From a bacterium (GTDB taxonomy: Bacteria > Electryoneota > JAOADG01): 64,000 nt of DNA. Made by a program: the position numbers and the translations under genes. The stretch lies in contig OY820579.1 of the NCBI GenBank assembly GCA_963681965.1, forward strand, positions 3,008,001 through 3,072,000, given 5' to 3'. Below, in pieces: positions 11,063 to 14,811 of the stretch (position 1 is its first letter; each line of letters starts with the position of its first letter). Under the pieces are notes generated by a model. It saw only the letters and a program-made list of their open reading frames with translations. It was not told the DNA's origin and did no database searches.

Positions 11063-11180
11063 TACCCCTGGTTTGAGAAGCTTTGTTGGAATTGACCTAA
11101 TATAATTGAAAAACTGTCAATTCTTCTTGCATGTTGAATTGGCGATCGATAAACTTTGGTGCAGCAAAAGTGAGGAATAT

Positions 11181-11738
11181 ATGCCATTTTTATTTTTAAT
11201 TATTGCCTTAGTCGTCGTAATTCTATGGATTGTAGGAATTTATAATGGATTAGTGCGGGGACGTAAACAAGTCGACAATAGCTGGTCGCAAATCGACGTC
11301 CAATTGAAGCGACGCCACGATCTGATCCCCAATCTGGTTGAAACAGTCAAAGGTTACGCCAAACACGAGCGTGAACTTCTGGAAAACATTACCAAGGCGC
11401 GTGCTCAGGCAGTCGATGCCCGTGATCGAGGGATCGGTCAACAAATCTCTACTGAAAATGCTTTGAGCGGAATGCTTCGAAATCTGATGGTTTCAGTTGA
11501 AGCCTATCCCGATCTGAAAGCCAACACCAACTTTTTAGCACTGCAGGAAGAACTATCCAGCACTGAAAACAAGATTGGCTTTGCCCGACAGCACTACAAC
11601 GATGTTACGACGAATTACAATATTAAAACCGAAGTGTTTCCAAGCAATATTTTCGCCGGGATGTTCGGTTTCAAGCAGTGCGAACTGTGGCAAATCACCG
11701 ATGCCGCTGAGCGCGAAGCACCCAAAGTTTCATTTTAA
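11181..11738 (+). CDS. lemA: LemA family protein
   Basis: YNGLV...WSQIDVQLKRRHDLIPNLVETVKGY, YPDLKAN, ENKIGFARQHYN; start moved to ATG 11181 behind GAGGA. Confidence 0.95.
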   Translation: MPFLFLIIALVVVILWIVGIYNGLVRGRKQVDNSWSQIDVQLKRRHDLIPNLVETVKGYAKHERELLENITKARAQAVDARDRGIGQQISTENALSGMLRNLMVSVEAYPDLKANTNFLALQEELSSTENKIGFARQHYNDVTTNYNIKTEVFPSNIFAGMFGFKQCELWQITDAAEREAPKVSF

Positions 11739-11753
11739 TACTACTATCTCAGC

Positions 11754-12701
11754 ATGAACGAAACGAATCGAGTGACTTTTCTTACTCTTATTGCTCAGAA
11801 CAAGCGCGCCAGCATTCTGTTGACGGTACTGATGTGTCTTCTGATAATGATACTCGGCTTTGTCATCGGCAAAGCTTGGTTCGGCAATGGCGAAATCGGT
11901 ATGGCGCTTGCCTTTGTCTTGAGTGTCGTTTTCAGTTTCATCAGTTGGTACGGTGGTGGCGATATCATTCTTTCGATGTCGGGTGCAAAGCAAATTGAAA
12001 AGAAAGATCACCCGAAACTATTCAATGTGGTTGAAGAAGTCGCGATCGCCGCCGGCATCCCAATGCCGCGGATCTACATCATCGAGGATACCGCTCCGAA
12101 TGCCTTTGCCACCGGTCGCGATCCCGATAATGCGGTCGTTGCAATCACTCGCGGTCTACTCGAAAAATTGGACCGCGACGAGCTGCAAGGTGTGATTGCA
12201 CATGAAATCGCACATATTCGCAATTTCGATATCCGATTTGCGATGCTGATGGCAGTGATGGTCGGCGTGATCGTCTTATTAAGCGATTTCTTTTTGCGTT
12301 CGTCTTGGTTCGGATTAGGTGGTCGTAGACGCGACCGTGACAGCGATAGCGGCGGTGGCGGATACTGGTTTATCGTCGCATTGGTCTTGGCAATTTTAGC
12401 GCCAATCTTTGCGAAAATTATCCAATTGGCGATTAGCCGAAAGCGCGAATATCTTGCCGATGCGACAGCCGTTCAATTTACAAGATATCCTGACGGATTG
12501 GCGCGGGCTTTACAAAAAATCGCCGCAGACGAAGAACCGCTCGAAAGCGCAAATCGTGCGACACAACACTTGTACATCGTCAATCCGTTGAAGAATTTTA
12601 AACAAGGGGTCGATAGTGTGTTCAGTACACACCCCCCCATCGAATCCCGGATCGCACTACTTCGACAACTTGGTGCCGGTCCGACAACTACTCCCAAATA
12701 G
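11754..12701 (+). CDS. htpX: HtpX-like M48 membrane zinc metalloprotease
   Basis: PNAFATG, HEIAH (HExxH), SRKREYLAD, STHPP; classic lemA-htpX pair. Confidence 0.93.
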   Translation: MNETNRVTFLTLIAQNKRASILLTVLMCLLIMILGFVIGKAWFGNGEIGMALAFVLSVVFSFISWYGGGDIILSMSGAKQIEKKDHPKLFNVVEEVAIAAGIPMPRIYIIEDTAPNAFATGRDPDNAVVAITRGLLEKLDRDELQGVIAHEIAHIRNFDIRFAMLMAVMVGVIVLLSDFFLRSSWFGLGGRRRDRDSDSGGGGYWFIVALVLAILAPIFAKIIQLAISRKREYLADATAVQFTRYPDGLARALQKIAADEEPLESANRATQHLYIVNPLKNFKQGVDSVFSTHPPIESRIALLRQLGAGPTTTPK

Positions 12702-12707
12702 GAGGTA

Positions 12708-13241
12708 ATGATGGAAGAATTGAGCCAAGTACCGACCAATACTATTACTCAACCCTCGCCTACTGTTACTCAACCCACGCCGGTATATGCGGGATTTTGG
12801 CGACGTGTTCTTGCTGCGATTATCGATTCGATCTTACTTCAAGTCGTTATGTCGATCATCTCGGTCATTTTCGGTATCGGATCAGCCCTGTCGATGCTCC
12901 CGATGCTGGCAACGGATAACGACGCTGCAATTGCCGGAATGATTGCATCACTCGTCGCATCCATGATGATGTTGATCATCGTCTCAACGATTGTTAACTG
13001 GTTGTATTATTCGTTGATGGAAAGTTCTTCGCTGCAGGCGTCGCTGGGTAAGATGGCAATCGGTATCGTTGTTACCGATCTGGACGGAAATCGAATTACT
13101 TTTTCTCGAGCGACCGGGCGATATTTCTCAAAGATTATCTCGTCGATCATTCTCTGTATCGGCTACATCATGGTCGGCTTTACTGCGAAAAAACAGGGGC
13201 TTCACGATATCATTGCCGGTACGTTAGTCGTCAAAAAGTAA
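12708..13241 (+). CDS. RDD family membrane protein (copy 1)
   Basis: YAGFWRRVLAAIID, SLGKMAIG, KQGLHDIIAGT. Confidence 0.92.
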   Translation: MMEELSQVPTNTITQPSPTVTQPTPVYAGFWRRVLAAIIDSILLQVVMSIISVIFGIGSALSMLPMLATDNDAAIAGMIASLVASMMMLIIVSTIVNWLYYSLMESSSLQASLGKMAIGIVVTDLDGNRITFSRATGRYFSKIISSIILCIGYIMVGFTAKKQGLHDIIAGTLVVKK

Positions 13242-13330
13242 TATCGAATAATCATTCAATTTATGTAGAACCATCATCGCATTGCTCTCCAGCAGTGTGA
13301 ATTAACTAGAACCACTCTTCGGGAGATAAA

Positions 13331-13840
13331 ATGAGCGAATTGGAACAGCAACCGGTAACGCCAGTACCACCGCAACCGTTAGTCAATGCAGGATTTTGGT
13401 TGCGATTGCTAGCACATATTATCGATAAAATTATTGTTTCCTCTTTTCTTTCGATTTTTTCGGTCTTGTTCGGAATTAAAGCGGCAATATCGATGATTCC
13501 CATGTTGATCAATGGCGATGCTGCTACGATCACAACGTTCGTCACAACATTAATTTCATCGATGATGATGTTCATCCCGATCGCGATTCTGACTAAGTGG
13601 CTCTATTTCACGCTGATGGAGAGTTCCTCGATGCAGGCAACTGTAGGGAAAATGGCACTCGGCATCAAAGTAACCGATCTTAACGGTGAAAGAGTTACCT
13701 TTGCACGCGCAACCGGACGTCATTTTTCGAAAATCATCTCATCCGCGATTCTCGGTATCGGCTATATCATGGCAGCATTTACCGAAAAGAAACAGGGATT
13801 GCACGATATCATTGCGGGAACACTTGTCGTAAAAAAGTAG
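13331..13840 (+). CDS. RDD family membrane protein (copy 2, tandem paralog)
   Basis: AGFWLRLLAHIID, TVGKMALG, KQGLHDIIAGT. Confidence 0.92.
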   Translation: MSELEQQPVTPVPPQPLVNAGFWLRLLAHIIDKIIVSSFLSIFSVLFGIKAAISMIPMLINGDAATITTFVTTLISSMMMFIPIAILTKWLYFTLMESSSMQATVGKMALGIKVTDLNGERVTFARATGRHFSKIISSAILGIGYIMAAFTEKKQGLHDIIAGTLVVKK

Positions 13841-13867
13841 ATCGATTGATCACTCTTTGAATGACGT

Positions 13868-13901
13868 AAAAAAAACAGGCATCAGTATGCCTGTTTTTTT
13901 T
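13868..13901. terminator. Bidirectional intrinsic terminator
   Basis: A-run, CAGGCAT-CAGT-ATGCCTG, T-run, between convergent genes. Confidence 0.85.
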
Positions 13902-13916
13902 ACAATGTTGGATGAA

Positions 13917-14135
13917 CTATATCGACATGTCGATTGCTTGACCGAGGAAGCTCACACCGTCGGGACGGAGTCGTTTTTGAAGGTCTTCACGAAGTAATAT
14001 TACACCGGTCGGTTGGTCCAATGGCTGTGGATCGGGAAAAACGACCTCATCACTATACCTCCGACGTTCGCCGGGATAGGCTGAAAGCAAAGGATCCATC
14101 GGTCGAGGACCGCTAATTTCAAAATTTGCAGGCAT
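13917..14135 (-). CDS. Small hypothetical protein, 72 aa (ORF B), C-terminus LGQAIDMSI
   Basis: ATG at 14135 preceded by GAGGT SD; ends just before the bidirectional terminator; tail resembles the G-x-x-I-D-x-x C-terminal motif of YjfB-like small proteins (resemblance only). Confidence 0.55.
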   Translation of the reverse strand: MPANFEISGPRPMDPLLSAYPGERRRYSDEVVFPDPQPLDQPTGVILLREDLQKRLRPDGVSFLGQAIDMSI

Positions 14136-14203
14136 GTGCAAATACCTCAAGCAAAGAGTACAATTTGTCTCAAGTCGTACCTGATTATTGTCGATACATA
14201 ATC

Positions 14204-14349
14204 GCAGGCCAACGGGTTCCACCGCGCCGGTTCCCTAGGTGCAGTTGCCCTCCGGTCAGATCAGCTCTAGTTCCCACCGCCGGAACGGAGCCGTTTGAAC
14301 CTCCGTCGGTCTGGTCATCCAGTACCAGCGGGACTGAACCCTTGGCCGC
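14204..14349 (-). ncRNA. Candidate ~146-nt structured RNA of unknown family
   Basis: GC-rich intergenic block. Ends pair over ~25 bp (GGCCAA-GGGUUC...CGCUGGU with ACCGGCG...GAACCC-G-UUGGCC), with internal hairpins CUGG-AUGA-CCAG and GACGGAG..CUCCGUU. G.U wobbles work only on the minus strand. Confidence 0.6.
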
Positions 14350-14366
14350 CCAACTTTAAGTATTTC

Positions 14367-14399
14367 AAAACGACCCCACTAGCGATGAGCGGGGTCGTT
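14367..14399 (-). terminator. Intrinsic terminator-like hairpin overlapping the ORF A stop codon
   Basis: AACGACCCCGCU-CAUCGCU-AGUGGGGUCGUU followed by a short U-run. Confidence 0.6.
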
Positions 14400-14702
14400 C
14401 TGCTCTTCCTCCCGCGGGGTCACCGGTCCGGGGAGATCAAAACCATCGATTAAGCCAAGTCGATACCAACCCAATGAAATCGCTTCGGTGTCTTCGGGTG
14501 TTACCCCTTCGGACGATTCCGGAAGTGCCTTTTGAGCTTCAAACAGCATCCGACCGGCATCGGAAATCTCTACTACATCCACAATCTGATTCACCAGACG
14601 TTCGACTGAAACCGGCATCGATGTTACTTGCAGCGCATACGAAGCCGTGATTGACGGCACCGGCTGTACATTTGATTCAGGAATCGTCTGGAGCGCATTC
14701 AT
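14379..14702 (-). CDS. Small acidic hypothetical protein, 107 aa (ORF A)
   Basis: ATG at 14702 with GAGGT SD; contains DVVEISDAGR, similar to the D-x-V-E-I-S motif of FlgM-like small proteins (resemblance only). Confidence 0.6.
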   Translation of the reverse strand: MNALQTIPESNVQPVPSITASYALQVTSMPVSVERLVNQIVDVVEISDAGRMLFEAQKALPESSEGVTPEDTEAISLGWYRLGLIDGFDLPGPVTPREEEQNDPAHR

Positions 14703-14795
14703 TGGGATAACCTCTTTCAAACTCTCCGCTCATCCGGGATTGACACAGATGAGCGGTGACCTATGGGGGCGCAGTACTACTTCGTTAGATGCTTA

Positions 14796-14811
14796 TGCAA
14801 ATGCCGTTCCA
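14796..14811 (-). promoter_or_regulatory. Sigma54 (-24/-12) promoter
   Basis: Minus strand TGGAACGGCATTTGCA: GG-N10-GC with one mismatch to TGGCACG-N4-TTGCW, ~95 nt upstream of ORF A. Confidence 0.7.

Follow-up and report, generated by a model that had tools for sequence, protein, structure and literature searches.

A structured element between two orphan genes

The DNA analysed here (the window) is a stretch of 64,000 nucleotides (nt) from a bacterium of the phylum Electryoneota (contig OY820579.1 of GenBank assembly GCA_963681965.1, positions 3,008,001 to 3,072,000). Between two minus-strand genes that encode orphan proteins, open reading frame A (ORF-A) and ORF-B, lies a structured element at positions 14204-14349 of the window, with a sigma-28-type promoter on its ORF-B side, a hairpin on its ORF-A side and a sigma-54-type promoter upstream of ORF-A (Table 1). 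We consider it likely that the element is the core of a plus-strand, sigma-28-dependent small RNA (sRNA) of about 200 nt that belongs to an undescribed family. Judged from the sequences, this family appears restricted to one small phylum, in which it would always be convergent to an ORF-A homologue that lies behind a sigma-54-type promoter.

The genome, a single contig of 4.24 Mb, has one full copy of the element besides nine matches of 14-22 nt with E>0.3, and the element is thus not a miniature inverted-repeat transposable element (MITE), a possibility raised in a preliminary description of this DNA. All helices named in that description (GGCCAA/UUGGCC, GGGUUC/GAACCC, CGCUGGU/ACCGGCG, CUGG-AUGA-CCAG, GACGGAG...CUCCGUU and UCCGG...CCGGA) were found where it had placed them, and its remark that no riboswitch could be recognized was borne out by Rfam. 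At the gathering score the whole window contains three tRNAs only, leaving the element without a family, and at E<=10 no family among the five matches listed for positions 13850-14750 (both strands, with the 6S RNA model RF00013 included) fits the element. Of the possibilities that had been offered, a new class of structured non-coding element outside the known riboswitches and Rfam families is the one that we retain; the accompanying proposals of a functional minus strand, a divergent 6S RNA and a CsrA sponge fared less well (see below). Contigs from four DNA sequencing runs showed no differences from the window over the parts that they covered.

The predicted folds are multi-branched on both strands. 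On the plus strand, positions 14204-14349 fold with -64.7 kcal/mol (z = -3.37) and none of 200 shuffled sequences did as well, and on the minus strand with -67.2 kcal/mol (z = -2.09), where 11 of 200 shuffles were as good. The fold of the whole element beats chance only moderately, and the long-range closing helix, called P1, is its solid part. The plus-strand core contains neither an ATG nor a conserved open reading frame, as read from the window and from its closest homologue.

Comparisons were made among 79 genomes of the phylum, in which G000 is the window genome and f1, f3 and f5 denote families. A BLASTN search of 41 relatives matched the element only in G003, a genome of the same family (f1) and another genus. 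There it occupies positions 1518-1667 of locus L009, also between an ORF-A homologue and an ORF-B homologue, and in the nucleotide alignment the ends of the element are better conserved than the neighbouring coding DNA. An identical run of 19 nt (ATCGCAGGCCAACGGGTTC) is followed by ACCGCGC, and the GGTCAG, GCGGGA and ACC-TTGGCC blocks are kept as well. The consensus fold of the two f1 sequences retains P1 together with the pairings CCGCGC/GCGGG and GGUCAG/YUGARCC; it separated neither the rest of the structure nor the strands. The G003 counterpart of the hairpin beside ORF-A was called a canonical plus-strand terminator by a terminator scan. A T-loop, Y-RNA or tRNA-like interpretation was rejected: the GUUCAAACGG loop is not kept in G003, and Y RNA, YrlA and tRNA-like families are absent among the five Rfam matches listed at E<=10. 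A 20-base pattern made from the conserved block gave 14 matches in genome_contigs and 11 in metagenome_contigs, none of which had the element beyond these 20 bases; all 25 came from high-GC genomes and two had TTGGCC somewhere downstream.

A sigma-28-type promoter precedes the element

On the plus strand upstream of the element the window carries TCAAGTCG-n12-GTCGATAC, and G003 has TCAAGTTT-n12-GTCGAAAG as its counterpart. The CTCAAGT and GTCGA-A boxes kept in the two genomes lie outside the fold, directly before the identical 19-nt start. The published consensus of sigma-28 (FliA) class 3 promoters is TAAAGTTT-n11-GCCGATAA, as given in the available part of its source (PMC2859248). The two-box architecture and the spacing are alike, and the sites of the f3 relatives are near-consensus; the window site is a weaker variant, resembling a flagellin promoter of its own genome. 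The flagellin promoters of the genome read TAAAGTTC-n11-GCCGATGA and, for flaC, TAAAGTTT-n12-GTCGAAGG, and the flaC promoter agrees with that of the element in spacer length and in the GTCGAA variant of the -10 box. A start 7-10 nt past the -10 box would fall at 14204-14207, exactly at the onset of the closing helix, and from the position of the promoter we infer that the sRNA starts there.

FliA itself is encoded in the genome (253.5 bits). Each of the 11 ORF-A loci has a sigma-28-type motif antisense to ORF-A, 156-455 nt past the stop codon, and most of the f3 sites read TCAAGTTC-n11-GCCGATAA; the sense strand has such a motif in one of the 11, which is about chance for that regular expression. 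By motif and conservation, the site is thus a putative member of the sigma-28 class. Within f1, a true FliA and the module occur together in G000 and G003 and are both absent from G001 and G002. Because of the sigma-28-type promoter and this co-occurrence with FliA, we propose that the RNA is a late-flagellar (class 3) riboregulator, for which the ORF-A mRNA would be the most likely target.

G001 and G002 have no FliA above the family cut-off, only a paralogue of 98-106 bits, and none of ORF-A, ORF-B and the element occurs in them. Possibly these relatives have no flagella; G001 is a fragmented assembly of 720 contigs. A permissive promoter matrix, by which the element and two flagellin genes had stood out, was discarded as circular. 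Outside the window, a near-consensus sigma-28-type site (TCAAGTTA-n12-GCCGATAT; G000:C1:839787-839813) was seen just before an open reading frame of 350 amino acids.

The closing helix covaries and suggests the strand

The energy of P1 in the window was equalled by one of 300 shuffled 5' arms and by none of 47 other segments of the same RNA. The helix is present in all ten RNAs examined with energies of -12 to -24 kcal/mol, which 0-5 of 300 shuffled 5' arms reached in each case and other segments reached rarely. With the helices placed in register at their 5' arms, positions 2, 6, 10, 11 and 13 vary on both sides. Position 6 is C-G, U-A or G-C and position 10 is C-G or U-A, and position 11 is G-C in f1 and C-G in f3.

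Read on the sigma-28 strand, the helices contain 113 Watson-Crick pairs, nine G.U pairs and no A.C mismatch, counts that lean towards pairing since the pairs were taken from a per-sequence duplex optimisation with our own script. As read off the duplexes, unpaired positions hold U.U, G.G or A and in no case A.C. The nine G.U pairs would be mismatches on the opposite strand, and P1 therefore appears to be an RNA helix of the sigma-28 strand.

Related RNAs in three families of the phylum

The same layout, in which a sigma-28-type promoter precedes a putative RNA with a core of about 145-153 nt facing the 3' end of ORF-A, was found in 13 genomes from three families. An ORF-A profile detected distant homologues in nine of the 16 f3 genomes. 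Seven RNAs start with (A/G)AGGNCA(A/G)YSG after the -10 box, and this start pairs with a segment 145-153 nt downstream; the core lengths in seven RNAs, that of the window included, are 146, 153, 145, 147, 147, 149 and 148 nt. The core is followed by a spacer and usually by a terminator on the sigma-28 strand. The scan called canonical terminators on that strand in G003 and G036 and missed that of G054, which has a long loop; four more genomes show a hairpin with a U-tract.

A pattern that joins the promoter to the RNA 5' end matched 13 places in the 79 genomes, versus three for a backwards control. Six of these places were new. Those in G052 (f3) and G017 (f5) are convergent to an ORF-A homologue (E = 4e-23 and 3e-7, respectively) and show the closing helix, that in G051 is cut by the contig end, and the three without ORF-A are probably chance matches. 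In three f3 genomes (G005, G040 and G028; loci L045, L046 and L047) the antisense promoter and its position are kept and the RNA, which starts GGGAUG or AGGAUG, is not alignable. The RNA of these genomes may have been replaced at a retained promoter position. In G020 the inner hairpins are kept and the closing helix is different.

Inside the RNA, f3 and f5 share a hairpin with the loop CUGCCA on wholly different stems (CCUG/CAGG, CCCCG/CGGGG, AUCCA/UGGAU and GCCG/CGGU). The 3' arms of the RNAs did not align in MAFFT. A covariance model (R1) built from two near-identical f3 RNAs, with noise up to 14 bits, recovered the RNAs of G024 (E = 0.0098) and G036 (E = 0.44) at their exact coordinates. 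Rfam searches of the relatives' loci gave no family, only sub-gathering matches of the miRNA type to long palindromes. Such palindromes, long and near-perfect, lie between the sRNA terminator and ORF-A at L043 413-475 and L040 1224-1330 and account for these spurious miRNA-family matches.

In G054 and G010 (L042 and L043) the 5' arm of the sRNA has two alternative partners, its P1 counterpart and the 5' half of the terminator of the same RNA (UGUUCCGGCUGCC). The duplex with the terminator in G054 is as low in energy as P1 (-24.3 kcal/mol in a wide scan; -22.0 versus -20.4 kcal/mol). These alternative pairings of the 5' arm could represent a conformational switch.

Complementarity to the ORF-A mRNA

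In six f3 loci from five genera, the ORF-A leader has a hairpin loop with GUGGCAGC, which is fully complementary to the loop GCUGCCAC of the sRNA. The hexamers CUGCCA (sRNA) and UGGCAG (ORF-A leader) are both present in these six loci and both absent in the other five. The sRNA stretch CGUCUCCG or CUCCGAAC, which contains a CUCCG motif, is perfectly complementary over 8-11 nt to the ORF-A ribosome site of G024, G054, G010 and G055, with lineage-specific flanks (GUCGUCUCCGA/UCGGAGACGAC in G024 and UCUCCGUCAA/UUGACGGAGA in G055). These complementarities suggest pairing of the sRNA with the ORF-A mRNA in f3, in which the loci are related. Shuffle tests of the sRNA/leader duplexes were mostly weak (z of +1.4 to -3.0), and only in G055 did none of 60 shuffles reach the energy. 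An RNAduplex comparison against 3355 crude start regions was uninformative, with the flagellins ranking 382-1173.

Evidence against a plus-strand sRNA and alternative explanations

Several results weigh against the proposal that the element is a sigma-28-dependent plus-strand sRNA acting on ORF-A. The window promoter matches the consensus at only five of eight and six of eight positions and has a spacer of 12 nt. When a weight matrix was derived from the f3 and flagellin promoters, the f1 sites being left out, the window site fell outside the top 30 of the genome; the reversed-genome control scored equally high, so that the scan does not discriminate. In both f1 genomes the more stable fold is that of the minus strand (-71.8 versus -61.5 kcal/mol in G003), which may stem from a strand richer in G and U forming more G.U pairs. 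The window hairpin at 14370-14398 was called a terminator on neither strand, and its tail is UUUU on the minus side and merely U-rich on the plus side. None of the sequencing runs listed with the stretch is of RNA, and transcription and strand are predictions. The interior of the f1 RNA does not align with that of f3, model R1 missed the window, and its match in G003 was at noise level and on the other strand. The ORF-A loci are related to each other, and the counts given above therefore overstate independent support. As to the target, the f3 loop motif CUGCCA is absent from f1. In the window, CCUCCGUC and its neighbours pair with the ORF-A leader around the GAGGUU site at -25.8 kcal/mol, a weak result that three of 60 shuffles reach; for the corresponding duplex of G003, 55 of 60 shuffles reach the energy.

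The preliminary description had taken wobble pairs as marking the minus strand as the functional one. However, G.U pairs occur in the best fold of either strand and are absent from P1 of the window, and the plus strand is favoured by the promoter, by the terminators of the relatives and by the G.U pairs seen in P1 across the family. Read in the other direction, the element would belong to a joint transcript of ORF-A and ORF-B and control ORF-B as an intercistronic or 5' leader structure. The two flanking genes are on the minus strand, and the greater stability of that strand in both f1 genomes is in keeping with this reading. Moreover, the G003 hairpin lacks a minus-strand U-tract, so that read-through from ORF-A would be possible, and ORF-B and the element co-occur in both genomes. 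These points are countered by the conserved blocks outside the fold, which match a plus-strand sigma-28 promoter and no minus-strand feature, by the nine mismatches that the closing helix would carry on the minus strand across the family, and by relatives that have the same RNA architecture without ORF-B. In the window, a hairpin followed by UUUU separates ORF-A from the element, and no Rfam cis-regulatory family matches. Hence, we keep control of ORF-B by a leader as a minority explanation, and an unlikely one. A riboswitch or other cis-regulatory leader class found no support, there being no Rfam match, ORF-B being found in two genomes only and the RNA architecture occurring without it. An element that acts as DNA, with its inverted repeats and a conserved 26-bp block binding a protein or forming a divergent ORF-B promoter and the fold being incidental, is improbable. 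The most conserved stretch does overlap a sigma-70-like TTGGCC-17-AATAAT for ORF-B, and Watson-Crick covariation by itself cannot separate an RNA helix from a DNA palindrome. However, the arms lie 125-134 bp apart, G.U pairs are tolerated on one strand only (nine G.U versus no A.C), a promoter and, in relatives, terminators bound the RNA, and a constant core length of 145-153 nt suits a folded RNA.

The remaining explanations have still less in their favour. A divergent 6S RNA that sequesters the RNA polymerase holoenzyme, proposed in the preliminary description, would pair its 5' and 3' ends in a long stem as the element does, and the 6S slot of this genome is empty: RF00013 has no match at E<=10 anywhere in the genome, in which SRP RNA was found normally. 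At the locus itself, though, neither RF00013 nor any other 6S model matches at E<=10, the fold is branched and lacks the central bubble of a 6S rod, with about 146 nt the core is smaller than is usual for 6S RNAs, the promoter is sigma-28-type and the distribution is limited to about 13 of the 79 genomes. We regard this explanation as very improbable. The same holds for a chance fold of a GC-rich spacer or a decayed MITE. The modest z scores of the whole element (-2.1 and -3.4) and its ends, which form a 13-bp inverted repeat, would fit either, whereas the single copy, the syntenic position in another genus with ends more conserved than the neighbouring coding DNA and the recurrence of the architecture in three families argue otherwise. 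The idea of a sponge RNA that titrates CsrA through GGA motifs is close to refuted. The minus strand does contain the six GGA trinucleotides that had been counted (the plus strand has three, both read by eye), and CsrA is described as acting in flagellar regulation of several lineages in the available parts of the sources; the six lie mostly within stems and on the disfavoured strand, and CsrA (PF02599) was not found at E<=0.001 in this 99.91 % complete genome, a search that was positive in three of 14 control genomes (E. coli, B. subtilis and T. maritima). The choice of the strand has practical weight, as a minus-strand assignment would misdirect probes and mutants.

A proposed circuit and its relation to known systems

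Given a plus-strand sRNA, a feedback circuit through ORF-A is an attractive extension, although a tentative one. Sigma-54 would switch on the small orphan regulator ORF-A. Once sigma-28 became active, a structured sRNA would be made from the opposite strand next to ORF-A, beginning at about 14204-14207, and its first 16 bases would pair with 14336-14349 and close the branched core. After a short spacer, the hairpin at 14370-14398 would end the transcript head-on against the end of ORF-A. The sRNA would then dock on the ORF-A mRNA by a loop-loop kiss (GCUGCCAC/GUGGCAGC) and by an anti-Shine-Dalgarno stretch at the leader and ribosome site. Translation of ORF-A could thereby be shut off or reshaped with neither Hfq nor CsrA, so that sigma-28 would feed back on a sigma-54-dependent gene, and the sRNA gene and its target would have stayed adjacent and co-evolved across families.

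According to the available part of a 2023 study (PMC10578931), E. coli has four sigma-28-dependent sRNAs that derive from untranslated regions of mRNAs, are linked to Hfq by the keywords of the article and tune flagellar expression post-transcriptionally. Synthesis on the flagellar sigma factor would be common to these RNAs and ours, for which it is a prediction. Unlike the E. coli sRNAs as presented there, the element looks stand-alone with its own promoter and terminator in a genome in which Hfq was not detected. It also has a long closing helix of its 5' and 3' ends, a branched core and a fixed synteny with ORF-A, and shares no sequence or Rfam relation with them. In Campylobacter jejuni, CJnc170 (FlmR) depends on FliA and CJnc230 (FlmE) depends on RpoN and represses the flgM mRNA, as stated in the accessible portion of Konig et al. 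2024 (PMC11187230). In that account the sRNAs stand between the sigma-54 and sigma-28 tiers and pairing with the mRNA of a small regulator closes the loop, as proposed here. The wiring would run in another direction, however, since in our prediction a sigma-28-dependent RNA would act on a sigma-54-dependent mRNA; moreover, ORF-A is not demonstrably FlgM, and the lineage is unrelated and without sequence similarity. 6S RNA (RF00013) resembles the element in being non-coding with its ends paired in a long stem, and differs in that its model does not match, in being a rod with a bubble where the element is branched, and in size and promoter type.

Going by the parts of these two papers available (PMC10578931 and PMC11187230), the sigma-28-dependent riboregulators on record come from a few Proteobacteria and from Campylobacter. 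A literature search of titles and the openings of abstracts found nothing on this phylum, which does not show that nothing has been published. If our interpretation is correct, the element represents a structurally distinct RNA family outside Rfam, from a flagellated phylum that is small, has been little studied and apparently lacks Hfq and CsrA. Its fixed partner, ORF-A, and a testable pairing model would then give an entry to post-transcriptional flagellar control beyond the model organisms and a way of finding out the function of the orphan ORF-A family (21 members among 5.8 billion proteins).

Flanking genes and genome context

Table 1 Features of the element and its surroundings (coordinates of the window)
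Feature	Position	Strand	Basis or remark
Structured core of predicted sRNA	14204..14349	+	Folds; 146 nt versus 145-153 nt in six relatives
Sigma-28-type -35 box TCAAGTCG	14170..14177	+	Kept as CTCAAGT with identical spacing in G003; motif in same orientation in 11/11 ORF-A loci
Sigma-28-type -10 box GTCGATAC, 12-nt spacer	14190..14197	+	G003 has GTCGAAAG at the same place
P1 5' arm GC-A-GGCCAA-C-GGGUUC	14204..14219	+	Duplex of -22.1 kcal/mol; identical in G003; aligns with AGGNCAAYSG of relatives at equal offset from the -10 box
P1 3' arm GAACCC-UUGGCC-GC	14336..14349	+	Duplex with 5' arm
CCGCGC block, pairs with GCGGG at ~14328-14332 and lengthens the closing stem	14222..14227	+	Two-sequence consensus fold; pairs unchanged in both genomes
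GGUCAG block, pairs with UUGAACC at 14295-14301	14254..14259	+	Two-sequence consensus fold; last pair G.U in window, G-C in G003
C/U-rich motif CCUCCGUC, anti-Shine-Dalgarno-like	14300..14307	+	Counterpart of CGUCUCCG / CUCCGAAC in f3 RNAs
Hairpin ACGACCCC...GGGGUCGU, likely sRNA end, overlaps ORF-A stop codon	14370..14410 (hairpin 14370-14398)	tail UUCUGCUCUUCC on plus, UUUUGAAAUACUU on minus	Sequence and fold
ORF-A, conserved protein of 107 amino acids, convergent with predicted sRNA	14379..14702	-	46-47 % identity to G003 counterpart; family alignment of 11 members
Sigma-54-type promoter TGGAAC-n5-TTGC before ORF-A, TGGAACGGCATTTGC	14797..14811	-	Motif in 11/11 ORF-A loci; rpoN in genome
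ORF-B, orphan protein of 72 amino acids	13917..14135	-	67-72 % identity to G003 counterpart; no Pfam domain
Sigma-70-like TTGGCC-17-AATAAT, possible ORF-B promoter, overlaps sRNA promoter and 5' end	14184..14212	-	Consensus scan only, 9/12; weakly kept in G003

All 21 proteins that match ORF-A are without a name or a Pfam domain. The sigma-54-type motif, [TC]GG[CA]A[CT]-n5-TTG, lies 27-108 nt before the ORF-A start in each of the 11 loci and takes the form TGGCAC/T-n5-TTG in the relatives (L039-L048). In G003, a gene for a sigma-54-dependent response regulator lies directly upstream. The identification of ORF-A as FlgM (PF04316) was not supported: three of 11 family members matched at E<=1, the best at 0.0026 and all below the cut-off, hhalign against the FlgM candidate of the genome gave a probability of 1.5 %, and a profile search of the PDB was empty. 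On the minus strand, the ORF-A leader contains a 9-bp hairpin (CCGCUCAUC...GAUGAGCGG) at 14726-14756. The 9-mer CCGCUCAUC repeats at the 3' end of ORF-A (14381-14389) within the terminator hairpin, and the sRNA terminator stem is hence complementary to the leader hairpin, which could be chance.

ORF-B was found in two of the 79 genomes and has two matching proteins in 5.8 billion; a metagenome scan gave 368 pattern stretches, none of which was confirmed as ORF-B. Its start codon lies on the opposite strand 34 nt from the -35 box of the sRNA, and therefore overlapping divergent promoters, with promoter competition, would be a second possible mode of action.

Elsewhere the genome encodes four genes with flagellin domains, RpoN and a FlgM candidate, in addition to FliA. 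Proteins encoded near the element carry the sorting tails of type-IX secretion. On the plus strand, genes for LemA, an M48 peptidase and two tandem membrane proteins of the RDD family occupy 11106-13840 and are followed by a clean, bidirectional-looking terminator at 13868-13900.

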